Below the pieces are notes generated by a model. It was given only the letters and a program-made list of their open reading frames with translations, did no database searches and was not told the DNA's origin. From an uncultured Actinomycetota bacterium (GTDB lineage Bacteria > Actinomycetota > Actinomycetes > JACCUZ01): a DNA stretch of 64,000 bases. Below are positions 3,282 through 15,101 of the stretch, one piece after another. A program made the position numbers and the translations under genes. The first letter of the stretch is position 1; every line of letters starts with the position of its first letter. The stretch spans positions 1,040,187-1,104,186 of the forward strand of contig OY970120.1 of the NCBI GenBank assembly GCA_963705885.1, read 5' to 3'.

Positions 3282-3315
3282 CCCGTCACGGTGCTCCCCC
3301 GGCTCGGGCCAAGAT

Positions 3316-3333
3316 CGTAACGATTTCTGTACG
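3316..3333 (+). promoter_or_regulatory. Candidate regulator-binding motif upstream of the sensor array (copy 1)
   Basis: CGTAACGATTTCTGTACG, 16/18 identical to 11873-11890; ACG repeated at 11-bp spacing; overlaps inverted repeat TGTACGCC (3328-3335) / GGCGTACA (3349-3356). Confidence 0.6.
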
Positions 3334-3387
3334 CCGGCGGCTGAGTCTGGCGTACAACAGGGAACTGGGGGAGGGAGGTCGCGCCGG

Positions 3388-4578
3388 ATGAGCCTGCGGC
3401 GTCTCGCCTGGGGACTGTTCGCGCTGTTCGTCGTCCTGGAGGTCGCGACGCTCTGGCTGATCTGGGACGGGCCGGACACGGCAGGCGACTCCGTCGGAGT
3501 CGTCGTCATCGGGTACGCCTTCGTCGGGGCACTCGTCGCCTCCCGTCGTCCCCGGGTGGCGGTCGGCTGGCTGCTCCTCGCGATCGCGGTCGGCTTCGCC
3601 GTGGACCTGGCCGGCGAGGCCTTCGCCCACTACCCGTCGGGCACGCCCGGATACCTGCCGGTCGTCTGGACCTCGGGCCTGGTGTTCACCGTCTGGATCA
3701 CGTTGGCAGTCCTGTTCCTCCCCCTCGTGTTCCCCGACGGACGGCTGCTCTCGTCTCGCTGGCGGCCGGTTGTGTGGCTCGGCGCGGTCGCGGTGACTGC
3801 GAGCATCGCGGGCTCCGCCGTCCGGCCCGGCGAGCTTGCCGCGTCGAACGGAGCGCAGCCCGCGACCCAGAACCCGTTCGCGGTCGGTGGCGTCGCGGCC
3901 GACGTCGCGGCGCTCGCCAATGTCGTCGGCAACCTGCTCATCGCTCTCGGCGTCGCGCTCGGGGTCGTCTCCCTCGTGCTGCGGTTCCGAAGGTCACGCG
4001 GGACTCAGCGGCAGCAGCTGAAGTGGTTCGTCTATGCATGCCTGGTGGCCCTGTCCGGCCTGGCGGTGGCCGCGGCGGCCGAGCTGCCCGGGTTCCCCTG
4101 GACCGAGCTGGTCGGGGGGATCGGCTGGATGACGTTCCTGTTCGGCGTCCTGGTCGGGATCCCGGTCGCGACCGGCGTCGCGATGCTCCGGCACCGGCTC
4201 TACGACATCGACGTCGTCATCAACCGGACGTTGGTCTACGCCTCGCTGACAGCGGTCCTGCTGGGGACGTACGTCGGGCTGGTGCTGCTGATGCGCCTGG
4301 TCATCGACCCCGTGACGGGCCAGTCCGACCTCGCTGTCGCCACTTCCACGCTGGCGGTGGCCGCGCTCGTGCGCCCGCTGCGCAGCCGCATCCAGGCGGC
4401 GGTGGACCGACGGTTCTACCGGGCGCGGTACGACGCGGCGCGGACGCTTGAGTCCTTCAGCACCCGGCTGAGGGACGAGCTGGACCTCGAGGCGCTCGGC
4501 ACCGACCTGCGCCGGGTCGTGCGCGACACGATGCAGCCGGCCCACGTCTCTTTGTGGGTGCGCGAGGAGGTCCGATGA
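3388..4578 (+). CDS. Multi-pass membrane sensor-like protein, paralogue 1 of 7, ends in N-terminal half of a GAF-like fold
   Basis: ATG 3388 after GGAGG; ~10 hydrophobic segments; VGWLL, FPDGRLLSSRWR, RQQLKW, HRLYDIDVVINRTLVY, tail DTMQPAHVSLWVR. Confidence 0.88.
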   Translation: MSLRRLAWGLFALFVVLEVATLWLIWDGPDTAGDSVGVVVIGYAFVGALVASRRPRVAVGWLLLAIAVGFAVDLAGEAFAHYPSGTPGYLPVVWTSGLVFTVWITLAVLFLPLVFPDGRLLSSRWRPVVWLGAVAVTASIAGSAVRPGELAASNGAQPATQNPFAVGGVAADVAALANVVGNLLIALGVALGVVSLVLRFRRSRGTQRQQLKWFVYACLVALSGLAVAAAAELPGFPWTELVGGIGWMTFLFGVLVGIPVATGVAMLRHRLYDIDVVINRTLVYASLTAVLLGTYVGLVLLMRLVIDPVTGQSDLAVATSTLAVAALVRPLRSRIQAAVDRRFYRARYDAARTLESFSTRLRDELDLEALGTDLRRVVRDTMQPAHVSLWVREEVR

Positions 4579-5792
4579 CCCGCCGGACGGCCACGGCCCT
4601 CGCGTGGGCCGGTCTCGGCCTCTGGGGTGCGCTTCTCGCGTTCGTCGTCGCGGCGATCGTGGCCGGACGGGGGACGGCGGACGAGGCGTTCATCGCCCTG
4701 ACCGTCGGGTACGCCCTGGTGGGGACCCTCGTCGCGGCGCGGGAGCCCCGGAACGCCGTCGGCTGGCTGCTGCTCGGCATCGGCATCTCGTTCGGCGCGC
4801 AGGCAGCGGCCGACGCGTACATCGCGGGAGAGGACCCGCTGCCAGGACGGACGGCGGTGGCCTGGTTCGCGGCGTGGGCCTGGTACTTCTGGATCTACCT
4901 CGCGGCACTGGTCCTGCCGCTGGTGTTTCCCACCGGCCGGGTGTCCTCCCCGCGATGGCGCTGGGTTCTGCGGATGGCCATGGCCTCGCTCGCGTTGAGC
5001 GTCGTCGGTGAGGCCTTCAAGCCAGGCGCCCTCGACGTCGACACGTCCGACGTCATCGACAACCCCTTCGGTGTCGGCGGGGCACTCGGCAGGCTGCTGA
5101 CCTACGGCAGCAACGTCGCAGACTTCCTCGTGGCCGCCGGAATCGTCCTGGGCGGGGTGCAGATCGTCCGGCGACTGCGCGGAGCGCGTGGCAGGGAGCG
5201 CCAGCAGCTGACGTGGTTCGCCTACGTCGGCGGTCTCGCACTGGTGGCGCTCTCCCTGGCCATGGTCGCGGCGCTGGCAGAGCCGTACGTCGAGGAGGGG
5301 GATGCGCCGACCTGGATGCTCGTGACCGGCGCCGTGGGTTGGTTCGGTGCGCTGTTCCTCATCGCGGTGGGCATCCCTGCCGCTGTCGGGGTGGCGGTCC
5401 TGCGGCACCGGCTCTACGACATCGACGTCGTGATCAAGCGGACACTCGTCTACGGCTCTCTGACCGCGGTTCTCGTGGTCGCCTACCTCGGGCTGGTCCT
5501 CACCTTCCGGCTCGTGCTGCAACCGCTGACGGGGGAGTCCGACCTGGCGGTCGCCGCGTCCACGCTCGCCGTCGCGGGCCTGTTCCGACCGGTGCGGGCC
5601 CGCATCCAGGCCGGCGTCGACCGCCGCTTCTTCCGTGCGCGCTACGACGCGGCACAGACCTTGGAGAGCTTCTCGGCGCGGCTGCGCGACCAGCTCGACC
5701 TCGACGCCCTGGGCACGGACCTGGGGAGCGTTGTGCGGCACACGATGCAGCCGGCGCACGTGTCGCTGTGGCTGCGGGAGGTGTCGCGGTGA
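4575..5792 (+). CDS. Multi-pass membrane sensor-like protein, paralogue 2 of 7
   Basis: ATGA overlap with previous stop; NAVGW, FPTGRVSSPRWR, HRLYDIDVVIKRTLVY, QPAHVSLWLR. Confidence 0.88.
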   Translation: MTRRTATALAWAGLGLWGALLAFVVAAIVAGRGTADEAFIALTVGYALVGTLVAAREPRNAVGWLLLGIGISFGAQAAADAYIAGEDPLPGRTAVAWFAAWAWYFWIYLAALVLPLVFPTGRVSSPRWRWVLRMAMASLALSVVGEAFKPGALDVDTSDVIDNPFGVGGALGRLLTYGSNVADFLVAAGIVLGGVQIVRRLRGARGRERQQLTWFAYVGGLALVALSLAMVAALAEPYVEEGDAPTWMLVTGAVGWFGALFLIAVGIPAAVGVAVLRHRLYDIDVVIKRTLVYGSLTAVLVVAYLGLVLTFRLVLQPLTGESDLAVAASTLAVAGLFRPVRARIQAGVDRRFFRARYDAAQTLESFSARLRDQLDLDALGTDLGSVVRHTMQPAHVSLWLREVSR

Positions 5793-6994
5793 CCCGCCGG
5801 GCAGCGAGCCGCCTGGCGTGGTCGGTCTTCGCCGTGTCGAGCGGGGCGAGCGCCACCGGGCTGCTGCTCCTGGCGGTGCTGCCTGCCGGTGCCCTCGACC
5901 GGGTCGGTGACTCGGTGTGGCTCTCGGGCTCGTTCGTCATGGTCATGCTCGTGTTCGGTCTGGTCGGTGCCGTGGTCGCGTCCCGGCTGCCGGCCAACCC
6001 GGTCGGCTGGCTGTTCCTAGGGCTCGCCGCGCTGCAGGGCGCCACCGGGCTGGCCTACGGCCTGGCCTGGTACTCCGTGTCCGTCACTCGCATCTCTGGT
6101 GGCGTGTGGCTGGGGTGGTTCGCCAACTGGTCAAGCGTTCTGACGCCGGTGCTGCTCGGTCTCGCGTTCCTCGTCTATCCCGACGGCCGCCTGCCTTCGA
6201 CGCGCTGGCGGTGGGGAGCCGCGTTGGTCGTCGCGGCCATCGTCCCGGTCGTGCTGACGTCGGCACTCGTGCCAGGACGCATCGACGACGTCCCGCAGCT
6301 GCGCAACCCGGCCGGCGTCGACGGGGCGGCCTGGCTCGCCGACCTCCCCACCGACCTCTGCTACCTGGTGATCCTCGTCACGGCGTCCGCGGGCGTCGTG
6401 ATGCGGTTCCGGCGCTCCCGCGGGACGGAGCGTGCCCAGCTGAAGTGGTTCGCCTGGTCAGCCGCGCTACTCACCGCGTACCTGCCGGCAGCGGCTGTCG
6501 CCACGGCCGTCGGGGGCTCCGGCTCCTCGAGGGCCGACGCCGTTGCCGGCCTGGTGTTCGCCGTCGGTCTGTGCGGCCTGCCGGTCTCCGTCGGCATCGC
6601 CGTGCTGCGGCACCGGCTCTACGACATCGACGTGGTGATCAACCGGACGCTGGTCTACGGCGCGCTCACCGCGGCGCTCGTCCTGGTCTACCTGGGGTCG
6701 GTCCTGGCGTTCCGGCTGGTGCTCGACCCGGTGGTCGGCCAGTCCGACCTCGCGGTCGCGGCGTCGACTCTCGCTGTGGCGGCGCTGTTCCGTCCGCTGC
6801 GCTCCCGCATCCAGTCGGTCGTCGACCACCGCTTCTACCGGGCGCGCTACGACTCGCAGCGGACGCTGGAGTCGTTCGGGTCCCGGCTGCGTGACGAGCT
6901 CGACCTCGACACCCTCGGCCTCGACCTGCGACGTGTGGTGCGCGACACCATGCAGCCGGCCCACGTGTCCCTGTGGCTGCGGGGCGAGCCGTGA
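5789..6994 (+). CDS. Multi-pass membrane sensor-like protein, paralogue 3 of 7
   Basis: GTGA overlap; NPVGW, YPDGRLPSTRWR, HRLYDIDVVINRTLVY, QPAHVSLWLR. Confidence 0.88.
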   Translation: MTRRAASRLAWSVFAVSSGASATGLLLLAVLPAGALDRVGDSVWLSGSFVMVMLVFGLVGAVVASRLPANPVGWLFLGLAALQGATGLAYGLAWYSVSVTRISGGVWLGWFANWSSVLTPVLLGLAFLVYPDGRLPSTRWRWGAALVVAAIVPVVLTSALVPGRIDDVPQLRNPAGVDGAAWLADLPTDLCYLVILVTASAGVVMRFRRSRGTERAQLKWFAWSAALLTAYLPAAAVATAVGGSGSSRADAVAGLVFAVGLCGLPVSVGIAVLRHRLYDIDVVINRTLVYGALTAALVLVYLGSVLAFRLVLDPVVGQSDLAVAASTLAVAALFRPLRSRIQSVVDHRFYRARYDSQRTLESFGSRLRDELDLDTLGLDLRRVVRDTMQPAHVSLWLRGEP

Positions 6995-8166
6995 GGCGCC
7001 TCCCGATCGCCCTCGCGGCGGTCGCCTGCGTCCTGTCCGTCGCTGGGTCGGGCGCATCCTCGGTCATCAACTGGACGAGCATCGTCGACCTGCCCTTCGC
7101 GGTCGCGTTCGCGCTGCTGGGCGTTGCGAGCGCGGCCACCGGCGCCGTCGTCGCCTCCCGGCTGCCCCGCAACGCCGTGGGCTGGCTGATCCTGGGGCTC
7201 GGGCTGGGCGTCGGCGTTCTCCTGTCCGTCGGCGCCTACGCGGAGGTCGGGGTCGACACCGACGGCGAGCCGTTGCCGGGGTACAGCGCGGCCGCGTGGC
7301 TGGGTGACGTCACCGGGATCCCGGTCTTCTTCGGCGTCACCGGCTTCCTGTTGCTCCTCTTCCCGACCGGTCGGCTGCCGGGGCCGCGCTGGCGAGCGGC
7401 GGCGTGGTTCTTCGGGCTGACCGTCCTCGTGGCCTGGGCGTCCTACGGGCTGGCGCCCGGCGAGGTCGGGTCCGGGGTGCCCAACCCGGTGGCGCTCGGC
7501 GGTAGTGCCGGGGAGCTCGCGCGACGCGTCGCTGACCTCACCAACCTGCTCGCCCTGCCTGGGCTGGGCGCGTGCGGCGCCGCGCTTCTCGTCCGCCTGC
7601 GGCGGTCGCGCGGCGTGGAGCGGCAACAGCTCAAGGCGTTCACCTACGCCGCGACCCTGGTGGTCCTGGGGTTCGGCACGACCGTGGTGGCTCACGGCGT
7701 GGTCGCCGACCTCGCGTTCCTGCTCGGGCTGGTCGCCCTGGCCGCGCTGCCGGTCGTGGCCGGGGTGGCCATCATGCGGCACGGGCTGTACGGCATCGAC
7801 ATCGTCATCAAGCGCACACTCGTGTACGCCCCGCTGACCGCGCTGATGGTCTGCGCCTACCTCCTGATCGTGCTGGGCCTGCAGTCGCTGCTGCGTCCGC
7901 TCGCCGGCGAGTCCCAGCTCGCCGTCGCCGCCTCGACCCTGGCGGTCGCGGCGCTGTTCCGGCCGCTGCGGTCACGGATCCAGGAGGCGGTCGACCGGCG
8001 CTTCTACCGGGCCCGGTACGACGCGGCGCGCACGGTCGCGTCGTTCAGCGGCCGGCTGCGGGACGAGCTGGACGTGGATGCGCTCGCCGAGGATCTGCGG
8101 CGGGTGGTCGCAGACACGGTGCAACCGGCCCACGTGTCGCTCTGGCTGCGGGAGAAGGCCTCGTGA
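6991..8166 (+). CDS. Multi-pass membrane sensor-like protein, paralogue 4 of 7
   Basis: GTGA overlap; NAVGW, FPTGRLPGPRWR, HGLYGIDIVIKRTLVY, QPAHVSLWLR. Confidence 0.88.
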   Translation: MRRLPIALAAVACVLSVAGSGASSVINWTSIVDLPFAVAFALLGVASAATGAVVASRLPRNAVGWLILGLGLGVGVLLSVGAYAEVGVDTDGEPLPGYSAAAWLGDVTGIPVFFGVTGFLLLLFPTGRLPGPRWRAAAWFFGLTVLVAWASYGLAPGEVGSGVPNPVALGGSAGELARRVADLTNLLALPGLGACGAALLVRLRRSRGVERQQLKAFTYAATLVVLGFGTTVVAHGVVADLAFLLGLVALAALPVVAGVAIMRHGLYGIDIVIKRTLVYAPLTALMVCAYLLIVLGLQSLLRPLAGESQLAVAASTLAVAALFRPLRSRIQEAVDRRFYRARYDAARTVASFSGRLRDELDVDALAEDLRRVVADTVQPAHVSLWLREKAS

Positions 8167-9347
8167 GCCGGGCGGTCGCCGCGCGGCTGGCGTGGAGCCT
8201 GTGGGCGGTCGACGTCGTGACGGTCGGCGTGTTCTTCCTGCTCGACGGGGTCGGTGCGGGTCTGGCGAGCAGCATCTCCGGCGGGGTGTTCATCCTCGCG
8301 TTCGCGACGACCGGCGCGCTCGTCGCCACCCGCCACCCGGGGAACCCGGTGGGGTGGCTGCTCTGCCTCGCCGCGCTCGCGTTCACCGTCGGGGGTCTGG
8401 CTGTCGCGGTGTCCGACAACGCCGTTCGCGCGCGGGAGTACGACGGACCGCTGGTCGCGGCAGCCGCCTGGGCAGGCACGTGGGTCTGGATGGCCGGGAT
8501 CGGCCCGGCGGCGACGTTCCTGCTCCTGCTCTTCCCCGACGGCCGGCTTCCGTCCCGCCGGTGGCGGCCGGTGGCGTGGCTGGCCGGTTCCGCGCTGGGC
8601 CTCACCGTCGTGGGGCTGGCGCTCGCGCCGGGGCGGATCGAGGGCACTCCGGTCGTCAACCCGTTGGGTGTCCCGGGCGCGGGTGCCGTCCTCGGCGTAG
8701 CGGCCGGCGTCGGGCTGGCCCTGCTGTTCGTCAGCATCCTGCTGTCGTGCGCGTCCCTGGTCGCGCGTTTCCGCGCGGCGCCGGCAGACCAGCGCCAGCA
8801 GCTGAAGTGGGTGGCCTACGCACTCCCCGTCGTGCTGATGTGGCTGGCAGCGTCGATCGTGCTGGAGTCGACCCAGACCAGCGAGGCAGCCGTCGACCTG
8901 GCCAACACCCTGGTGTCCGTCGGGCTCACCGTCGTCCCGGTCACGATCGGCGTGGCGATGCTGCGGTACCGGCTCTACGACATCGACGTCGTCATCAACC
9001 GGACGCTGGTCTACGGCTCGCTGACAGCTCTGCTCGCCGGCGTGTACCTCGGCTCGGTCCTGCTGCTCCAGCTCGTCCTCGCCCCCCTCACCGAGACCTC
9101 GGACCTGGCGGTGGCGGCGTCGACGCTGGCGGCGGCTGCGCTCGTGCGGCCCGCGCGGTCGCGCATCCAGGGCGTCGTGGACCGGAGGTTCTTCCGTGGG
9201 CGGTACGACGCGACGCGCACCCTGGAGTCCTTCACGGGGCGGCTGCGTCAGGAGGTCGACCTGGACTCCGTGAGCGCCGACCTCCGTGGCGTGGTCCGCG
9301 ACACGGTCCACCCCGCCCACGTCTCGCTGTGGCTGCGGGGCACCTGA
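8163..9347 (+). CDS. Multi-pass membrane sensor-like protein, paralogue 5 of 7
   Basis: GTGA overlap; NPVGW, FPDGRLPSRRWR, YRLYDIDVVINRTLVY, HPAHVSLWLR. Confidence 0.88.
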   Translation: MSRAVAARLAWSLWAVDVVTVGVFFLLDGVGAGLASSISGGVFILAFATTGALVATRHPGNPVGWLLCLAALAFTVGGLAVAVSDNAVRAREYDGPLVAAAAWAGTWVWMAGIGPAATFLLLLFPDGRLPSRRWRPVAWLAGSALGLTVVGLALAPGRIEGTPVVNPLGVPGAGAVLGVAAGVGLALLFVSILLSCASLVARFRAAPADQRQQLKWVAYALPVVLMWLAASIVLESTQTSEAAVDLANTLVSVGLTVVPVTIGVAMLRYRLYDIDVVINRTLVYGSLTALLAGVYLGSVLLLQLVLAPLTETSDLAVAASTLAAAALVRPARSRIQGVVDRRFFRGRYDATRTLESFTGRLRQEVDLDSVSADLRGVVRDTVHPAHVSLWLRGT

Positions 9348-10615
9348 TGCCCCTGCTGCCCGACTCGACCCTGCGCAGGGCGGCGTGGGCCCCGTCCGTC
9401 CTCCTGGCCGCCATGATCGCGGTCGGGCTCCTGATCTCGTTCGCCGAGCAACCGGTGGTCCCTGAGCCCGGCGTCGGCTGGGACGACTCGAGCGCCAGGG
9501 CGGATGCCGCGTTCTCGGCCATCATCCTCGTCTTCCCCCTGGTCGGGCTCCTGATCCTCCGGCGTCATCCGCGCAACACGGTCGGATGGCTGCTCCAGGG
9601 CATCGGGCTCGCGTGGGCGCTCGGGGCCGTGAGCGACAACTACGTGCGGTATGCCCTGCTGGTCGACCCCGGCGCCCTTCCGGCTGCTGATGTGGTGGCC
9701 GCCCTTGGGGAGGGCCACTGGGTGCCGGCGGTAGGGCTGATGGGCGGCTTCCTGCTCCTGCTCTACCCCGACGGTCACCTGCCGTCGCGCCGGTGGCGAC
9801 TCGTCGGGTGGCTCAGCGGGGTGACGATGGTCGTCGCCTATCTCGGTGTCACGCTCGCCCCTGGCGCGCTGACCGCGCCCGCCCCGGTCGAGAACCCCCT
9901 CGTTCTCACAGCGGCCGGGTCGGTGCTCACCGTCGTGTCGTTCGGCTCCGTCGCCCTCCTGCCGGTCTGTGTCGTGGCCTGCGCCGCAGCCCTGGTCACG
10001 CGGTTCCGTCGTTCGAGCGGGGTCGAGCGGTTGCAGCTGAAGTGGCTCGCCACGGCCGGCGGGACAGTGGCGGCGCTCTACCTCCTGCTCATGAGCCTGG
10101 GGGCTCTCGCGTCGCTCGGGGCGTTCGGCGACGAGAGCGTCGTGCGCGCGACCTGGCTGGGCTGGCTGGAGACCGGCACGGTTGTCTCGTTCGTCCTCAT
10201 CCCGATCGCGCTCGGCTTCGCCCTGATGCGCTACCGGCTCTACGACATCGACGTCGTCATCAACCGCACGCTGGTCTACGGCCTGCTCACCGCGGCCCTG
10301 GCCGTCGTGTACCTCAGCTCGGTGCTCGTGCTCCAGCTCGTGCTGAGCCCGCTCACCGACCAGTCCGACCTGGCGGTGGCCGCCTCCACCCTCGCCGTTG
10401 CGGCCCTGTTCCGGCCGGCCCGGGCGCGCATCCAGGCGGTCGTGGACCGGCGGTTCTTCCGCCGGCGGTACGACGCCGCGCGGACCCTGGACGACTTCGC
10501 GTCCAGGCTGCGCCACGAGGTCGACCTGGAGGCGGTCGGGGCGGACCTGCGAGCGACCGTCCGGGACAGCGTGGCTCCGGCGCACGTGTCCCTGTGGGTG
10601 AGGAGCGTCTCGTGA
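9347..10615 (+). CDS. Multi-pass membrane sensor-like protein, paralogue 6 of 7
   Basis: TGATG overlap; NTVGW, YPDGHLPSRRWR, YRLYDIDVVINRTLVY, APAHVSLWVR. Confidence 0.88.
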   Translation: MPLLPDSTLRRAAWAPSVLLAAMIAVGLLISFAEQPVVPEPGVGWDDSSARADAAFSAIILVFPLVGLLILRRHPRNTVGWLLQGIGLAWALGAVSDNYVRYALLVDPGALPAADVVAALGEGHWVPAVGLMGGFLLLLYPDGHLPSRRWRLVGWLSGVTMVVAYLGVTLAPGALTAPAPVENPLVLTAAGSVLTVVSFGSVALLPVCVVACAAALVTRFRRSSGVERLQLKWLATAGGTVAALYLLLMSLGALASLGAFGDESVVRATWLGWLETGTVVSFVLIPIALGFALMRYRLYDIDVVINRTLVYGLLTAALAVVYLSSVLVLQLVLSPLTDQSDLAVAASTLAVAALFRPARARIQAVVDRRFFRRRYDAARTLDDFASRLRHEVDLEAVGADLRATVRDSVAPAHVSLWVRSVS

Positions 10616-11877
10616 CCGGACCAGAGGCCCCGCGCGTGTCGGACCGTGCCCTGCGCCGGCTGTCGTGGGTCGTTCCCGCCCTCCTCGCCGCCGTCTACGC
10701 CGTGTCCATGCTGGTCGCGCTCGCCGAGCCGGCTCGCGCCGGCGGGGCCTGGGAGGGCGGCGGGATGCTCACCGAGGTCATGTTCGCCGCCGTGATCCTG
10801 ATGTTCTCGTTGACCGGACTGCTGATCGTCCGCCGGCAGCCACGCAACACCGTCGGGTGGGTGCTGCAGGGCGTCGGGGCCGCCTGGGGGCTCACCGGGG
10901 TGACCGACGCCTACGCCGCGTACGGGCTGGTGGTGCGGCCGGGTTCCCTGCCCGGCGCGGACGTGGCGGCGGCGCTCAGCAGCGGCGGCTGGGCTCCGGG
11001 AGTCGGCGTCATGGGCACCTTCCTGCTGCTGCTCTACCCCGACGGGCACCTGCCGTCGCCACGATGGAGGGTCGTCGCCTGGCTGTCGGCCGTGACGATC
11101 ACGGTGGTGACCGTCACGATCACGTTGTCTCCCGGGCCGCTCGGGGTGGCGCCGGCGCCGGACCTGCGGAACCCCCTCGGCCTGGAGTCCCTCCGCACCG
11201 AGCTCCTGGTCGTGCTGGCCGTCGCCCTGCCGCTCTTCCCGCTCTGCATCCTGGCCAGCGCGGCCGGGCTGGTGCGCCGGTTCCGCCGGTCTCACGGCGT
11301 GGAGCGGCTCCAGCTGAAGTGGCTCGCGACCGCTGGTGCGGCGGTCGCCTTCCTCTACCTGTGCGCGATGGCGTCATCGCTGCCTCGGATCGTCTCGTCC
11401 CCGGACCAGGGCGATCCGGGCTGGCTGAGCGCCTTGCAGAGCGTCATCCTGTTGTCGTTCGTGCTCCTGCCGGTGTCGATCGGCATGGCGATCCTGCGTT
11501 ACCGGCTCTACGACATCGACGTGGTCATCAACCGGGCGCTGGTCTACGGCTCGCTGACGGCCGCGCTGGCAGCCGTCTATCTCGTCTCGGTGCTGGTGCT
11601 CCAGCTGGTGCTCAGCCCGCTCACCGACCAGTCCGACCTCGCCGTGGCCGCCTCCACCCTCGCCGCGGCGGCCGTCTTCCGGCCGGCGCGGACGCGCATC
11701 CAGGGCGTCGTGGACCGCCGGTTCTTCCGGCGCCGGTACGACGCGACGCGCACACTGGACGACTTCACGGCCCGGCTGCGCCACGAGGTCGACCTGCGAG
11801 CAGTGGGATCCGACCTCAGCGCGACCGTCCGCGACGCGGTCCAGCCGGCGCACCTGTCGCTGTGGCTGCGGCCGTAA
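10612..11877 (+). CDS. Multi-pass membrane sensor-like protein, paralogue 7 of 7 (closest to paralogue 6)
   Basis: GTGA overlap; NTVGW, YPDGHLPSPRWR, YRLYDIDVVINRALVY, QPAHLSLWLRP*. Confidence 0.88.
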   Translation: MTGPEAPRVSDRALRRLSWVVPALLAAVYAVSMLVALAEPARAGGAWEGGGMLTEVMFAAVILMFSLTGLLIVRRQPRNTVGWVLQGVGAAWGLTGVTDAYAAYGLVVRPGSLPGADVAAALSSGGWAPGVGVMGTFLLLLYPDGHLPSPRWRVVAWLSAVTITVVTVTITLSPGPLGVAPAPDLRNPLGLESLRTELLVVLAVALPLFPLCILASAAGLVRRFRRSHGVERLQLKWLATAGAAVAFLYLCAMASSLPRIVSSPDQGDPGWLSALQSVILLSFVLLPVSIGMAILRYRLYDIDVVINRALVYGSLTAALAAVYLVSVLVLQLVLSPLTDQSDLAVAASTLAAAAVFRPARTRIQGVVDRRFFRRRYDATRTLDDFTARLRHEVDLRAVGSDLSATVRDAVQPAHLSLWLRP

Positions 11878-11890
11878 CGATGTCTGGACG
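11873..11890 (+). promoter_or_regulatory. Candidate regulator-binding motif upstream of the phosphatase/STAS genes (copy 2)
   Basis: CGTAACGATGTCTGGACG, 16/18 identical to 3316-3333; contains the TAA stop of paralogue 7. Confidence 0.6.
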
Positions 11891-11961
11891 GTCGACGCCG
11901 ATGCTGTTCTTGAGACGGAAGGGAGCGGGGAGATGACCGGGATGCTGCGAGAGGTGCACCC

Positions 11962-13620
11962 ATGACAGCCCTCACCGGCTCGTTCCGGCGCCGCTTCCTC
12001 GGCCGCTCCTCGACGGCGCAACGCGCCGCCTCGCACGAGAGCACCGAGCTGCTGGCCGCTCCGCAGGACGACGTCGCGCCGGTCGACATCGCCCCGAACG
12101 ACCCGCTTCTCGCCTACCTGCAGAGCGCCAGCGGTGCCGTCGACGTCGACGCGCTGGAGCTCGACTCGCCGGCACTGGCGGCGATGAAGGAGGCCGGGGT
12201 CAGGCTGGCCGTGCCGCTGGTCAGCCAGGGCGAGCTGATCGGGGTGCTGAACCTCGGACCGCGGCGGTCCGAGCAGGAGTACTCCTCCGACGACCGCAAG
12301 CTGCTGGACAACCTCGCGGCGCAGGCCGCGCCGGCGCTGCGGGTCGGCCAGCTGGTGCGCCAGCAGCAGGCCGAGGCGCGCACCCGGGAGCGCTTCGAGC
12401 AGGAGCTCGAGGTCGCGAGGCTCATCCAGCAGAACTTCCTGCCCAAGCAGCTTCCGGACCTCCCCGGCTGGCAGGTCGCCGCCTACTACCGCCCCGCCCG
12501 CGAGGTAGGCGGGGACTTCTACGACGTCATCCCGTTGCCCGACGGCCAGGTCGGCTTCGTCGTCGGCGACGTGACCGACAAGGGGGTGCCCGCGGCGCTC
12601 GTCATGGCCGCCACCCGCAGCGTGCTGCGGGCCTCGGCACAGCGTCTCGTGGACCCGGGTGCCGTGCTGGAGCGGGTGAACGAGCACCTGTGCCCGGACA
12701 TGCCGGAGAAGATGTTCGTCACCTGCCTCTACGGCGTCCTCGAACCGGCCACGGGGCGGTTCCGGTTCGCCAACGCCGGCCACGACCTGCCGTACGTGAA
12801 GACGGCCGAGGGGTCGGTCGAGCTGCGAGCACGCGGCATGCCGCTCGGACTGATGCCCGGCATGGTGTACGAGGAGAAGGAGGCCGTGCTCGCGCCCGGG
12901 GAGTCGGTGCTGCTGCACTCCGACGGCGTGGTCGAGGCGCACAGCCCCGACGGCGAGATGTTCGGCTTCCCTCGGCTGAAGGACGCCGTCGCCCGCTACC
13001 CCGGCGGCGGCGAGCTCATCGACCGCGTCCTCACCGACCTGCACGCGCACACCGGACCCGGCGCGGAGCAGGAGGACGACATCACGATGGTGACCCTGTC
13101 CCGCTCCGCCGGAGCGGCGTCTAACGGGACCGGTGCGTCGCCGCTGCACCAGCTGGTCGAGTTCGAGGTCCCCAGCGCCGAGGGCAACGAGCGCCTCGCG
13201 CTGGCGCGGGTGAGCACGATCGTCGGGCCCCTGGGGCTGGACGAGGCGCGGCTCAAGCGCCTCGAGACGGCGGTCGGCGAGGCCACCATGAACGCGATGG
13301 AGCACGGCAACCGCTACCGCGCGGACCAGCCGGTGACGGTCCGGGTGCTGACCGAGAGCGACCGGGTCCGGGTCCAGATCGTCGACCAGGGCGGCAGGAC
13401 GCGGGACGTCGAGACCGAGGTGCCCGCCGAAGTCCCTGACCTCGAGGCGAAGCTCGCCGGCCTCCAGCGGCCCCGCGGGTGGGGGCTGTTCCTGATCAAG
13501 AACATGGTCGACGAGGCCCACGAGTCCAGCGAGGACGACCGCCACACCCTCGAGCTGGTCATGCACCTGACCGAGTCCGCTCCCGCCCCCGACGAAGGAG
13601 ATCGTCATGACGACGAGTGA
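11962..13620 (+). CDS. C-terminal half-GAF + PP2C/SpoIIE-type Ser/Thr phosphatase + RsbW-like HATPase (anti-sigma kinase) fusion
   Basis: GAF C-half LAVPLVSQGELIGVLNLG...DDRKLLDNLAAQAAPAL; PP2C motifs VGGDFYD, GDVTDKG, HSDGVVE, EDDIT; HATPase boxes EATMNAMEHGN, DQG, RGWGLFLI; GAGAGG RBS. Confidence 0.92.
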   Translation: MTALTGSFRRRFLGRSSTAQRAASHESTELLAAPQDDVAPVDIAPNDPLLAYLQSASGAVDVDALELDSPALAAMKEAGVRLAVPLVSQGELIGVLNLGPRRSEQEYSSDDRKLLDNLAAQAAPALRVGQLVRQQQAEARTRERFEQELEVARLIQQNFLPKQLPDLPGWQVAAYYRPAREVGGDFYDVIPLPDGQVGFVVGDVTDKGVPAALVMAATRSVLRASAQRLVDPGAVLERVNEHLCPDMPEKMFVTCLYGVLEPATGRFRFANAGHDLPYVKTAEGSVELRARGMPLGLMPGMVYEEKEAVLAPGESVLLHSDGVVEAHSPDGEMFGFPRLKDAVARYPGGGELIDRVLTDLHAHTGPGAEQEDDITMVTLSRSAGAASNGTGASPLHQLVEFEVPSAEGNERLALARVSTIVGPLGLDEARLKRLETAVGEATMNAMEHGNRYRADQPVTVRVLTESDRVRVQIVDQGGRTRDVETEVPAEVPDLEAKLAGLQRPRGWGLFLIKNMVDEAHESSEDDRHTLELVMHLTESAPAPDEGDRHDDE

Positions 13621-13969
13621 GCTGCCCACGGCGGTGCGGCACCGTGACCGGGCCGCCGTCATCGACATCGTCGGCGACGTCAACGGCTCGGCCGAGGCCT
13701 CCCTCGACCGCGCCTGGGCCGACGCCACCGAGGGCCGGCCCGAGGCGGTCGTCCTGAACTTCGAGGGTGCCGGCTACATCAACTCCACCGGCATCGCACT
13801 GATCGTCGGGATGCTCGCCAAGGCACGCGCCCACGGCATCCCGATCCGGGCCTACGGCCTGACGCCGCACTACCGCGAGATCTTCGAGATCACCCGGCTC
13901 GCGGACTTCCTGGCGATCAACCCCGACGAGGACAGCGCCCTGCGCGGCGCGGACGGGAGCACCACATGA
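13607..13969 (+). CDS. STAS domain anti-anti-sigma factor 1
   Basis: IVGDV, VVLNFEGAGYINSTGI, IFEITRL pattern of the SpoIIAA/RsbV family. Confidence 0.9.
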   Translation: MTTSELPTAVRHRDRAAVIDIVGDVNGSAEASLDRAWADATEGRPEAVVLNFEGAGYINSTGIALIVGMLAKARAHGIPIRAYGLTPHYREIFEITRLADFLAINPDEDSALRGADGSTT

Positions 13970-14316
13970 CCGAGGCGACAGCAACCTTCGGCGTGCGCCG
14001 GCACGGGTCGGCCGGCGTGGTCGACATCAAGGGCGACGTCACGTCCGGCTCCGAGGACGTGCTGATGAGCGCCTACGACGAGGCCGGCGACGCGAAGGCG
14101 ATCGTCCTGAACTTCACCGACCTGACCTACATGAACAGCGGCGGCATCGGGCTGCTGGTCACCCTGCTGGTCCGGGCGCAACGCAACGCGCAGCGCCTGC
14201 TCGCGTTCGGCCTGTCCGACCACTACCGGCAGATCTTCGAGCTGACCCGTCTCGACGAGGCGGTCGGCATCCACGACGACGAGCAGTCCGCGCTCAGCGC
14301 GGCCGGCGCGACCTGA
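13966..14316 (+). CDS. STAS domain anti-anti-sigma factor 2
   Basis: IKGDV, IVLNFTDLTYMNSGGI, IFELTRL; ATGA overlap. Confidence 0.9.
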   Translation: MTEATATFGVRRHGSAGVVDIKGDVTSGSEDVLMSAYDEAGDAKAIVLNFTDLTYMNSGGIGLLVTLLVRAQRNAQRLLAFGLSDHYRQIFELTRLDEAVGIHDDEQSALSAAGAT

Positions 14317-14333: not shown

Positions 14334-15101
14334 ATGAGCGAGGTCAACGAAGCCACCGACAAGGCGGCCGCGCGCGACGCGACCCACTGGGCGAAGAAGG
14401 TCTCGCGGCTCGACGTGGGACAGGTGCCCGCCGGGGCGGTCGGCATCAACGTGAGCGGCAAGCGCCTCGCCGGGCCGATCCAGGGCTTCGGCAAGATGTG
14501 GCAGAAGACCTACCAGGTCCGGCTTCCCGGCGACCAGGTCACGCCGACCGACCTCATCGCCACCTGGAAGCAGCGGTTCCCGGAGTTCTGGCCCGAGGGC
14601 AACCGGTTCTACGCCCCGCTCACCGGCATCGAGCCCGGGGAGGTCGCGCTGATCGGCATGACGCTCCCCGGCCGGATGAAGCTCTCGACCGGAGTCATGG
14701 TCCTCTATGCCGACGACGAGTCGTTCACGCTCATGACTCCGCAGGGGCACATGTTCGCCGGCTGGATCACCTTCAGCGCGACGGAGCGGCTCGGGGAGAC
14801 CGTCGCGCAGGCCCAGGTCCTGATGCGGGCCTCCGACCCGGTCTTCGAGCTCGGCCTGACGCTCGGCGGCCACCGCCAGGAGGACAAGTTCTGGAACCAC
14901 ACGCTGCGTGAGCTCGCCAAGCACGTCGGCAGCGCGGACGCCGAGGTGTCGACCCAGGTCGTCTGCGTCGACCGCAAGCGGCAGTGGTCCCGCTGGACCA
15001 ACGTCTGGCACTCGTCGGCCATCCGGTCGACCCTCTACACCTTCGGTGCGCCGGTACGGGGACTACGGGGACTGGCGCACCGGGGGCGCACGGTTGGCTG
15101 A
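14334..15101 (+). CDS. Soluble hypothetical protein, probably co-transcribed with the partner-switching genes
   Basis: GAGGAGG RBS; globular Trp-rich composition (GPIQGFGKMWQKTY, GHMFAGWITFS); family not confidently recognised. Confidence 0.8.
   Translation: MSEVNEATDKAAARDATHWAKKVSRLDVGQVPAGAVGINVSGKRLAGPIQGFGKMWQKTYQVRLPGDQVTPTDLIATWKQRFPEFWPEGNRFYAPLTGIEPGEVALIGMTLPGRMKLSTGVMVLYADDESFTLMTPQGHMFAGWITFSATERLGETVAQAQVLMRASDPVFELGLTLGGHRQEDKFWNHTLRELAKHVGSADAEVSTQVVCVDRKRQWSRWTNVWHSSAIRSTLYTFGAPVRGLRGLAHRGRTVG

Follow-up and report, generated by a model that had tools for sequence, protein, structure and literature searches.

The window analysed here (the whole stretch of DNA, 64,000 nucleotides) contains, at positions 3388-11877 of its forward strand, a translationally coupled array of seven genes, S1 to S7, encoding ~400-residue membrane sensors with ~10 TM helices, as defined by gene calls and alignment. 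S1 (3388-4578; 396 residues, ~10 TM), the product of which ends in ...PAHVSLWVREEVR, is followed by S2 (4575-5792; 405 residues, ATG start), S3 (5789-6994; 401 residues, GTG), S4 (6991-8166; 391 residues, GTG), S5 (8163-9347; 394 residues, GTG), S6 (9347-10615; 422 residues, ATG) and S7 (10612-11877; 421 residues, GTG; also modelled with AF2), the start codon in each case overlapping the stop of the preceding gene. The S7 stop codon, TAA (11875-11877), is separated from the next gene, PK (11962-13620; 552 residues), by an 84-nucleotide spacer (11878-11961), the sequence of which includes a second in-frame stop, TGA, ahead of the PK ATG and a Shine-Dalgarno-like site, GAGAGGTG. Metagenome contigs span 11768-12008 without differing letters, noting that the source sample may be among the sequencing runs concerned; over 11500-12500 such contigs also displayed odd 'joints' with short sides (21-30 letters). 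On the same strand, PK is followed by genes for two STAS proteins (13607-13969, 120 residues, and 13966-14316, 116 residues) and for a conserved 255-residue protein with no Pfam family (14334-15101), likened to DUF1990 by a language-model atlas alone; in 68 of 75 loci a homologue of the latter is encoded downstream of the two STAS proteins, and its gene likely belongs to the operon. There is no sigma-factor gene among the conserved operon genes, i.e. those for the sensors, PK, the two STAS proteins and the 255-residue protein.

The C termini of all seven sensors align as P(A)H(V/L)SLW(L/V)R, with 1-4 further residues after it, confirming, with the gene calls, the proposal of the first-pass annotation that seven ~10-TM paralogues end 1-4 residues after SLWxR. 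Pairwise identity among the seven is 41-63% overall, with means of 34% over the N-terminal ~310 columns, 72% over the last two TM helices and 69% over the tail. A constant output module, comprising an RYRLYDID loop, two TM helices and the cytoplasmic tail, is thus joined to a diversified N-terminal TM part, although each of the N-terminal sensing parts is kept in its orthologues, at 56-81% identity. For the tail, dN is 0.25 and dS is 0.68 (minimum 0.38), compared with 0.77 and 0.87 for the N-terminal part; the tail dN/dS of ~0.36 at a dS of 0.68 rules out chance and recent gene conversion as the source of tail conservation, which we therefore ascribe to selection. The W, the F and one R of the tail are identical in 240/240 sensors. 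The putative receptor family is large, with thousands of unannotated members. S1-S7 belong to no named family in Pfam or NCBIfam, a sensor profile had 0 matches at E≤0.1 among PDB sequences, and a Foldseek search of the PDB with the S7 model gave none at E≤0.001, with weak GPCR-like helical-bundle rows only. Elsewhere in the genome there are three full-length sensor-GAF-HisKA_3 kinase paralogues, which have the TM module in common with S1-S7.

Pfam, NCBIfam, PDB profile matches and AF2 modelling together indicate that PK comprises a disordered N terminus (~35-38 residues), a partial GAF domain, a SpoIIE/PP2C phosphatase domain and an RsbW-like HATPase_c_2 kinase domain. The putative phosphatase domain (residues 193-381; 12538-13104) matches the Pfam SpoIIE profile with an E of 5.8e-52 over profile positions 1-191 of 192, and so appears full-length; across 55 sequences there is no variation at D185, D188, D203, D321, D372 or D373 and hardly any at D206, these conserved acidic residues presumably being the PP2C metal ligands. 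The predicted kinase domain (residues 411-532; 13192-13557), identified with Pfam, NCBIfam and the PDB, covers positions 9-125 of 127 in the HATPase_c_2 profile (E 2.2e-20), with N444, H448, G449, G506 and G508 invariant. It has below-cutoff matches to the spIIAB and RsbW equivalogs in NCBIfam and matches to anti-sigma F factor and RsbW chains in the PDB; its N-box and G-box are those expected of an RsbW/SpoIIAB-type enzyme. Both downstream proteins match Pfam STAS (E 3e-11 each), with TIGR00377 scores of 52.2 and 51.5 (cutoff 53.45), and contain the motifs ...YINSTG... and ...YMNSGG..., in which the putative phosphosite would be the Ser/Thr following the conserved Asn/Asp. The gene content anticipated in the first-pass annotation, i.e. 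a partial GAF, PP2C and HATPase protein together with two STAS proteins, is therefore borne out by the Pfam matches (GAF C-terminal part, SpoIIE, HATPase_c_2, and STAS twice).

The GAF-like region of PK, residues 39-126 (12076-12339), corresponds by Pfam partial matches and AF2 to the C-terminal part of a GAF domain (helices 48-55 and 70-77, strands 82-88 and 91-97, and the start of helix 109-159). Only the C-terminal parts of the profiles are matched: GAF_3 52-127/129 (PK 45-126), GAF_2 89-135/136 and GAF 79-133/133. None of the seven sensors matches a Pfam GAF profile at E≤1, and a single-chain, end-to-end GAF match (PF01590, PF13185 or PF13492) was found in neither PK nor the sensors. Nonetheless, fused relatives, Pfam, a predicted complex and conservation indicate that the S7 cytoplasmic tail (residues 352-421; 11665-11874), which runs from a juxtamembrane RxRIQxxVDRRFFRRRYDA motif through helices to the strand PAHLSLWLR, corresponds to the N-terminal portion of a GAF.

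The missing connection is provided by natural single-chain relatives, the existence of which had been anticipated in the first-pass annotation: in P0008 and six other proteins, sensor, tail, variable loop and 'NDPL...' half-GAF occur in one polypeptide. P0008 (919 residues) has 43% identity to S7 over 98% of the S7 length and aligns with PK residues 39-536 (E 6.9e-198); at its junction, ...PARVSVWLR is followed by an 11-residue linker and DIAPNDPVVAYFQSASGAVD..., the match to PK beginning at its residue 42. The six others have the same order, with variable linkers of 10-35 residues. Pfam GAF profiles cross the junction in P0008 (GAF 1-132/133, residues 378-499; GAF_3 1-127/129, residues 378-500), P0039 (GAF 1-133/133) and P0022 (GAF 2-133/133), these natural fusions serving to assess the coverage of whole-GAF profiles. 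Both pieces are homologous to one GAF domain, and sensor tail and PK N terminus together appear, by alignment, to make up a complete one; the break point is the variable loop directly after GAF strand 1. The claim that a GAF domain is split is therefore real, and the halves are partially matched or unmatched by Pfam when alone and spanned by the profiles in the fused homologues, but 'half' is a loose term, in that strand 1 and the helix or helices before it come from the tail, whereas PK contributes the remaining ~60% of the profile. In the fused forms, strand 1 is followed by a short linker that varies between proteins, so that strand 2 and the GAF small-molecule pocket (for cNMP, haem, bilin or other ligands) may be reduced. 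In a quick tree, several forks of which are unresolved and in which the fused rows lie on long branches, four fused forms fall outside the split clade, whereas P0008 and P0042 fall inside the actinobacterial split clade; branches are short for the split PKs (0.02-0.7) and, except for P0008 (0.38), 1.6-4.2 for the fused relatives. Among 10 further proteins sampled with an N-terminal half-GAF, the GAF match begins at profile position ≥35 in 10/10; the output behind it is SpoIIE in nine, one has no second domain, and neither a kinase DHp nor a cyclase was found in any of the 10. Sensor-sensor fusions, in P0002 and L046, were also observed, the tail of the first sensor being internal in each.

When modelled alone with AF2, each half appears incomplete. 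The last 12 residues of S7 are unstructured (residues 410-421, pLDDT <50, no strand), and the PK N-terminal module forms one long hairpin of two long strands plus three helices, in agreement with the earlier proposal that the phosphatase N terminus is not a complete domain alone. Prediction of the complex, which had been suggested as a check, was carried out for PK 1-190 with S7 352-421 at 1:1, S7 being the one tail modelled, in a system limited to one copy of each of these two soluble segments. The pair passed controls, with an ipSAE of 0.78 (0.78, 0.79 and 0.78 in three runs) compared with 0.00 for the best of three controls, a mark that, in calibration of the method, is reached by 58/80 solved complexes and by 2/110 mismatched pairs; at least 90% of contacts agree between runs and the partner pLDDT is 73. 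In the model, S7 416-418 pairs antiparallel with PK 95-97 and S7 402-406 lies on PK helix 115-122, with PK 38-43 touching, the predicted interface comprising S7 378-420 and PK 38-43 and 92-133. The modelled pair thus reproduces the GAF topology, i.e. strand 1 beside the last strand with the N- and C-terminal helices packed, and 13 of the 15 invariant or nearly invariant positions in S7 378-421 are predicted interface residues. Since halves of a known fold may pass such a test by resemblance alone, the predictor having learned intact GAF domains, we read the model as evidence of compatibility, not of binding. Across 73 loci and 240 sensors, tail-PK normalised mutual information is marginally higher for interface pairs (mean 0.171 versus 0.159, Mann-Whitney p 0.008, with pairs non-independent and phylogeny a confounder).

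The split form is conserved and stable. Among PK relatives, the best 120 all fall within 489-569 residues, at 76-100% identity, and the best 120 sensor relatives, taken from 6931 matches among 8000 scored candidates, all fall within 371-456 residues. The PK partial GAF is near-invariant in 81 sequences, many positions in 85-131 being identical in 81/81. Comparison of 80 loci (the best of 473 confirmed) from two phyla reveals that, in 65 of the 68 with at least 3 kb of upstream sequence, 1-8 full tail-ending sensors precede the PK gene on the same strand; these sensors terminate no more than 12 residues from the model end in 207/219 cases and 13-28 residues from it in 10/219. Both STAS genes follow PK in all 75 loci with enough downstream DNA, and a small extra gene lies between sensors and PK in 34/80. 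No clean fused sensor-PK frame was present among the 80 related loci; one candidate, L026, was rejected as its locus is full of frame breaks. At the genome level, PK was present in 37, sensors in 43 and both in 35 of 401 sampled genomes of the class, counts that take in the unpublished genome G031, employ thresholds chosen by the analyst and treat related genomes that are not independent; the apparently PK-only genome G206 in fact has four adjacent sensors, giving 36/37. The suggestion that sensors and enzyme co-occur is thus upheld, both by these counts and by synteny in other genomes. Four sampled draft genomes (69-94% complete) have split-type sensors and no PK at the threshold used, single 'short-type' tail-ending sensors are found remote from PK (L081, L083, L084), and, in G184, 10 or more sensors form an array for which no PK lies within 18 kb.

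The overall results support the split-GAF interpretation of the first-pass annotation, in that the checks suggested there had favourable outcomes and none of its refuting observations was obtained, and we consider it reasonably probable that receptor and effector are coupled by fold complementation in trans. A conserved operon encodes one GAF domain in two pieces on separate proteins, with the sensor output module closing with the GAF opening helix or helices and strand 1, and a single cytoplasmic RsbU-RsbW-type enzyme, PK, opening with the remainder, which leads via a long helix into PP2C. In the proposed mechanism, the tail strand would insert antiparallel to the last GAF strand of PK, with the tail helix on the PK C-terminal GAF helix, so completing the fold and docking PK at that receptor. 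The receptor state, as set by whichever ligand the sensor may bind, could then be relayed via the completed GAF domain and connecting helix, shifting the balance between PP2C phosphatase and RsbW-like kinase activities on both STAS proteins, the presumed substrates, with several receptors competing for, or alternating on, one enzyme. It may even be, and we suggest this tentatively, that the arrangement is of a plug-and-socket type, in which a receptor 'plug' (GAF helix plus strand 1) of standard make is disordered until it enters the 'socket' offered by a single soluble RsbU-RsbW enzyme. Such a mode of coupling, which to judge from the descriptions available would be new to bacterial signalling, would explain the near-frozen sequence of both halves across two phyla; receptors from anywhere in the genome could be gained, lost or swapped without touching the enzyme, and plugs competing for a limiting socket could integrate or prioritise signals.

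It is alternatively conceivable, albeit unlikely, that the two pieces no longer meet, with the tails serving other ends (self-association, packing on their own cytoplasmic loops or binding another partner), the PK GAF being self-sufficient or homodimerising, and linkage reflecting descent from a fused gene plus co-regulation. The confident AF2 prediction for PK residues 41-130 alone (pLDDT 81-90) implies that the partial module might be stable or self-associate, and the unlinked sensors and sensor arrays, the fusions with an internal first tail and the marginal covariation are in line with such separation. However, conservation of both pieces is far above that of the corresponding segments of the fused relatives, the clustering of near-invariant tail positions on the predicted interface and the co-occurrence in 35-36 of 37 genomes argue for contact, and hydrophobic strand and helix faces would be left uncovered if the partial GAF, with its two long strands, stood alone. 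A related and rather improbable proposal is that the truncated sensors are not activating receptors, but decoys or modulators that sequester or inhibit PK, or form TM hetero-oligomers with the three fused kinases. The presence of those kinases with the same TM module, as well as the 7:1 excess of sensors over PK, which is compatible with titration, is consistent with this role, whereas the diversification of the N-terminal parts, each conserved in orthologues, suggests distinct inputs, and arrays adjoin PK in lineage after lineage. This alternative would still need the same tail-PK contact, and so differs from fold complementation in sign only.

That the split is an artefact or dead end, arising by sequencing or assembly error, recent pseudogenisation, or fusion by read-through or frameshift, is barely credible. 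S7 and PK do share a reading frame, and frame breaks occur throughout one of the related loci, L026, but the two in-frame stops ahead of PK led us to reject an S7-PK read-through or frameshift product, and the contigs across the junction are identical (subject to the proviso on their source). Further, six of the seven sensors precede another sensor rather than PK, the same stops recur in 217/219 sensors from 80 loci in two phyla, and purifying selection is apparent on both pieces.

Comparison with known systems helps to define what is new about coupling by fold complementation. P0008, P0402 and P0437, which are annotated as 'SpoIIE family protein phosphatase', resemble S7/PK along their whole length (TM output module, tail, GAF remainder, PP2C and RsbW-like kinase), but fusions of the P0008 type have an intact GAF in one polypeptide, and hence one sensor per enzyme, whereas in the split system the chain is cut after strand 1, PK has its own disordered N terminus and there are 1-8 or more sensors per enzyme. 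The closest solved relative of PK is Rv1364c from Mycobacterium tuberculosis (PDB 3ke6; E 1e-20, PK 163-478); fused RsbU-RsbW(-RsbV) proteins of this type likewise have PP2C and an RsbW-like kinase in one chain and function by partner-switching with STAS antagonists. Rv1364c, however, carries an intact PAS sensor at its N terminus as well as a fused STAS domain, and is not known to have a split sensory domain or a membrane receptor array. The first-pass annotation also did not recognise a many-inputs/one-output architecture as described. This does not stand for the logic, which has an analogue in the Bacillus RsbU/RsbV/RsbW pathway and stressosome (RsbR paralogues, RsbS and RsbT), where paralogous sensors feed one PP2C acting on a STAS antagonist; because many-sensors/one-phosphatase logic is thus known, the new element is the coupling mechanism. 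In the stressosome, a large cytoplasmic STAS complex frees the RsbT kinase, which binds the RsbU N-terminal domain, whereas the operon described here has integral membrane sensors and lacks RsbR/S/T-like genes, with coupling proposed to occur via GAF completion. Chemoreceptors provide a further parallel, in that many MCPs, which differ in their input parts but have a conserved cytoplasmic tip, use a single CheA, although the folds are unrelated to a split GAF and docking is by complete domains (CheW/P5). Completion of one chain's fold by a segment of another is familiar from chaperone-usher donor-strand complementation and split inteins; to our knowledge these function in assembly or splicing rather than in signal transduction, and neither involves a GAF domain. 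We found no description of a natural split GAF in the literature searched, subscription journals and supplements lying outside the search.

Bacterial signalling is usually described in terms of strings of complete domains, with receptor-effector contact made via complete docking domains. At the locus described here, two proteins each carry part of one regulatory domain, with the break at a fixed loop, and selection has maintained this division across many lineages, several receptors accompanying each effector. Should the halves reassemble, they would constitute a natural split-domain switch, i.e. a new wiring of many inputs to one partner-switching output. They would also open a functional route into a very large membrane family without a Pfam or NCBIfam name, and protein engineers would gain a split-GAF pair already tested by evolution. 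The split system is present in many soil bacteria, including harmless actinomycetes that can be cultured, such as Kribbella, and is thus directly testable.

The seven sensor genes, S1 (3388-4578), S2 (4575-5792), S3 (5789-6994), S4 (6991-8166), S5 (8163-9347), S6 (9347-10615) and S7 (10612-11877), lie consecutively on the forward strand, every following start codon overlapping the preceding stop, and an 84-nt spacer separates S7 from the gene for the phosphatase-kinase PK (11962-13620, +; 552 aa), after which come STAS1 (13607-13969, +) and STAS2 (13966-14316, +). GC content is high, at 70-78% per kb across the locus; the genome as a whole, a single contig of 3.63 Mb, stands at 73.5%, and in it PK is the only half-GAF protein and S1-S7 are the only tail-ending sensors. 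S7 and PK stand in a common reading frame; the TAA that ends S7 is followed in the spacer by a second in-frame stop, TGA, which rules out an S7-PK fusion by read-through. Contigs from public metagenome runs, possibly including that of the source sample, match 11768-12008 letter for letter. Upstream, a divergent SARP/AfsR-like regulator (513-3509, -; BTAD, AAA_16 and TPR) would, read as its long ORF, reach ~120 nt into S1; an alternative start at an internal MARVIEV... (about 3281) would give a divergent promoter region of ~106 nt. The gene after the STAS genes (14334-15101, +) encodes a 255-aa protein without Pfam or NCBIfam family, which lies near 'DUF1990' clusters in a language-model atlas (score 0.98; a lead only) and may be a target or output of the switch.

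The sensors (391-422 aa) share 41-63% pairwise identity, distributed very unevenly along their length, with a mean of 34% in the first ~310 alignment columns, 72% in the last two TM helices and 69% in the C-terminal tail. The first-pass annotation had described a common tail ending for all seven, and their alignment bears this out, the shared ending being RxRIQxxVD(R/H)RF(Y/F)RxRYDxxxT(L/V)xxFxxRLRxx(L/V)D(L/V)xx(L/V)xxDLxxxVxx(T/S/A)(M/V)xPAH(V/L)SLW(L/V)R plus 1-4 residues. The conservation of the tail reflects selection on the protein, since dN and dS are 0.25 and 0.68 in the tail versus 0.77 and 0.87 in the N-terminal part; recent gene conversion was rejected as its cause on the basis of the tail dS (minimum 0.38) and dN. 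The AF2 model of S7 comprises ~10 membrane helices, its core being confidently modelled (pLDDT ~90, residues 51-230), and the basic loops and very basic tail suggest, by the positive-inside rule, that both termini are cytoplasmic. Scans of Pfam and NCBIfam returned a family for none of S1-S7, and no related solved structure was found by sequence profile or by Foldseek at E ≤ 0.001. When S7 is modelled alone, residues 410-421 are without structure (pLDDT <50); the Trp of the tail strand is the same in 240/240 sensors.

PK begins with a disordered stretch (residues 1-35, pLDDT <50), followed by a module (~39-135) that matches GAF profiles at their C-terminal part only (GAF_3 52-127/129, GAF_2 89-135/136, GAF 79-133/133). 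A long helix (109-159) connects this module to a SpoIIE/PP2C domain that is complete (E 5.8e-52), and the kinase part is RsbW/SpoIIAB-like (HATPase_c_2, E 2.2e-20); the nearest solved relative is Mycobacterium tuberculosis Rv1364c (3ke6, E 1e-20; PP2C and kinase). Modelled alone by AF2, which is confident even so, the N-terminal module has helices at 48-55 and 70-77, a single long hairpin (82-88/91-97) and a bridge of two residues, and thus falls short of the five- or six-stranded GAF sheet. Residues 85-131 are mostly identical in 81/81 sequences. The first 38 residues (window 11962-12075) consist of a conserved Met and a basic motif, FRRRFLGR at residues 8-15, then a variable Ala-rich linker; M1, R9 and R10 are found in 63-72 of the 81 sequences, and the motif, which bears a faint likeness to the juxtamembrane DRRF(F/Y)RRRY of the sensors, is possibly in contact with membrane or receptor.

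In some relatives the two pieces form one GAF, sensor and enzyme being a single polypeptide. P0008 (919 aa, from an Actinomycetota MAG) is 43% identical to S7 across 98% of its length and aligns with PK over residues 39-536 (E 6.9e-198); its junction reads ...MQPARVSVWLR, then DQTKVGAEALA, then DIAPNDPVVAYFQSASGAVDVD, which corresponds to PK from residue 42. When 1.84 billion representatives were searched with PK 36-140, 7164 matches reached E ≤ 0.001 and 99 of these E ≤ 1e-30; among the 150 matches listed, 125 are N-terminal (start at or before residue 169), 8 single and internal (start at residue 338 or later) and 17 in giant multi-repeat proteins. Six proteins with internal matches were read (P0382, P0402, P0405, P0416, P0437 and P0443), and all have the same order, i.e. 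tail, SLW(L/M/F) strand, a variable linker of 10-35 residues, (N/D/G/S)D(P/L)..., half-GAF and SpoIIE. Pfam GAF profiles run end to end across the P0008 junction (GAF_3 1-127/129 at 378-500; GAF 1-132/133 at 378-499), and likewise span those of P0039 (GAF 1-133/133) and P0022 (GAF 2-133/133). Because the profiles of the fused proteins span the junction, the fission point is a permissive loop directly after GAF strand 1; the tail contributes strand 1 together with the helix or helices that open the domain, and PK contributes the remainder.

Complex prediction for PK 1-190 with the tail of S7 (residues 352-421), the sole sensor modelled, using separate alignments for each partner, gave ipSAE values of 0.78, 0.79 and 0.78; the highest value among three controls was 0.00. 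In calibration the ipSAE mark was reached in 58/80 solved complexes and 2/110 mismatched pairs. Contact agreement between the runs was at least 90% and the partner pLDDT was 73. In the predicted complex the lowest-error contacts place W418, L417 and S416 of S7 antiparallel to V95, L96 and N97 of PK, with S7 402-406 lying on the PK helix 115-122 and PK 38-43 also in contact. The model has the GAF arrangement described at first pass, in which strand 1 packs beside the last strand. Since a predictor trained on intact GAF structures can give the two parts of so well-known a fold a high score, the result is taken to indicate compatibility of the halves, not binding. Within tail residues 378-421, 15 positions are invariant or almost so, and 13 of them are interface residues of the predicted complex. 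This overlap, the unstructured end of S7 modelled alone, the constant strand Trp, the near-identity of PK 85-131 and the short branches of the split PKs all agree with such a fit; a direct test for covariation between tail and PK gave a marginal signal.

The split form is widely maintained. Every one of the top 120 PK relatives measures 489-569 aa (76-100% identical), and the best 120 sensor relatives, from 6931 matches among 8000 scored, are all 371-456 aa and without Pfam family, many of them lying on common contigs with consecutive locus tags. Scanning one genome per species gave 600 pattern matches, 473 of them loci with PK relatives, of which the best 80 were retrieved; these belong to Nocardioidaceae, Kribbella, Solirubrobacterales, Thermoleophilaceae, Gaiellaceae, Geodermatophilaceae and other Actinomycetota, together with six Chloroflexota MAGs. 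For 68 loci the sequence extends 3 kb or more upstream, and in 65 of these one to eight full sensors precede PK in its own orientation; as flanks were limited to 10 kb, arrays are possibly longer. In the remaining three (L064, L076, L080), tail-bearing sensors lie at other places in the flanks, or a divergent one stands immediately upstream. The stop falls within 12 residues of the model end in 207 of the 219 upstream sensors and at 13-28 residues in 10; the two exceptions are in L042, a locus with broken frames, and L046, where two sensors are fused. No clean sensor-PK fusion was found among the best 80 loci, and an apparent fused frame in L026 was rejected as that locus is frame-broken. STAS1 and STAS2 lie downstream in all 75 loci with at least 800 bp, followed by a homologue of the 255-aa protein in 68/75. 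Some other gene intervenes between sensors and PK in 34/80 loci. A ~190-aa class III adenylate/guanylate cyclase catalytic domain, standing alone with its own sensor domain absent (Pfam Guanylate_cyc E 4e-22 in L040), lies between the last sensor and PK in 27/80 loci (L028, L030-L032, L035-L038, L040-L048, L050-L053, L055, L057, L059, L060, L062, L066), and a ~150-aa SRPBCC/Polyketide_cyc2 protein between sensors and PK in 7/80 (L001, L003, L005, L010, L011, L016, L021).

Co-occurrence was analyzed in 401 genomes drawn evenly from the class of the source organism, including one unpublished genome (G031), using cut-offs of our own choosing (PK E ≤ 1e-100, sensors E ≤ 1e-60) with 3-4 candidates scored per genome; PK was found in 37, sensors in 43 and both in 35, related genomes not being independent. 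One of the two PK-only genomes, G206, does carry four sensors adjoining PK. In four of the eight sensor-only genomes the match ends at model position 378-401 within frames of 727-1081 aa, i.e. the fused-kinase type; the other four (G118, G155, G352, G364) have split-type sensors in drafts 69-94% complete, those of G155 being at a contig edge. Tail-ending sensors with no linked PK gene occur singly at L081 5983-7554, L083 6110-7321 and L084 6615-7850, a 'short' subtype without the first ~118 model positions, and also in genome G184 (L085 5546-17917), where ten or more sensors form an array and PK is absent within 18 kb.

In a quick maximum-likelihood tree of the half-GAF and PP2C region (49 rows; SH-aLRT support only), the fused pair P0049 and P0051 falls outside all other rows; the fused P0039 and P0052 likewise branch outside the split clade, at a fork that is unresolved, and P0040 shares an unresolved fork with Chloroflexota split forms. 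P0008 and P0042 are nested, with support 95, in the actinobacterial split clade. Long branches lead to the fused rows and several forks are open, and split PKs are much shorter-branched than all fused relatives but P0008. The simplest reading of the tree would be an ancestral fused gene and one old fission, then retention or re-fusion in a few lines. The system is patchy in the source organism's own family (3/22 other genomes), and one well-supported clade mixes PKs labelled Solirubrobacteraceae, Kribbella and Nocardioidaceae; these observations suggest that the operon has been transferred horizontally or that MAGs are mislabelled.

Beyond the demonstrated homology, break point, conservation, synteny and co-occurrence of the split GAF, and the predicted docking geometry of the tail on PK, a mechanism may be proposed in which docking would recruit PK to a particular receptor, the state of which would be relayed by the completed GAF and by helix 109-159, shifting the balance of PP2C and kinase activities on STAS1 and STAS2, with one enzyme shared by, or competed for among, seven receptors. 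The unlinked sensors, the intervening genes in 34/80 loci, the AF2-confident lone PK module and the weak covariation argue against this proposal. No sigma factor gene is among the conserved operon genes. GAF, PP2C, RsbW-like kinase and STAS partner switching are known kinds of parts; many-to-one logic is known from the Bacillus stressosome (many sensors, one phosphatase) and chemoreceptor arrays (many receptors, one kinase), and fold completion between chains from pilus donor-strand complementation and split inteins. Searches of open-access papers and bioRxiv turned up no natural case of a GAF, or of another bacterial sensory domain, divided between a family of membrane receptors and their effector. 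With each of these elements known and the split sensory domain not found, we rate the system as a variant built from known parts that stands a considerable chance of embodying a new coupling principle.

The TM module is also used elsewhere. The source genome encodes three full-length paralogues (C1:1280067-1282355, +; 2289182-2291530, -; 633503-635671, -) in which the same TM module is fused to a GAF-like region plus a HisKA_3/HATPase histidine kinase, with tails of another subtype (..NRLVYG.. versus ..DRRFYR..). Among 8000 candidates scored, 62 longer relatives of S7 were found at E ≤ 0.001, for which precomputed Pfam assignments include HisKA_3 (24), SpoIIE (7) and class III cyclase (2); the module is thus an input domain paired with several outputs. 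P0029 and P0045 are sensor-GAF-cyclase fusions. P0002 (776 aa) and L046 6846-9293 have two sensor modules head to tail in one frame, the first GAF-start tail being internal and leading straight into the first TM helix of the next module. Giant proteins of 1200-3950 aa (P0311, 3952 aa; P0339; P0343; and 14 others) contain 7-19 stretches ~30-36% identical to the PK half-GAF.
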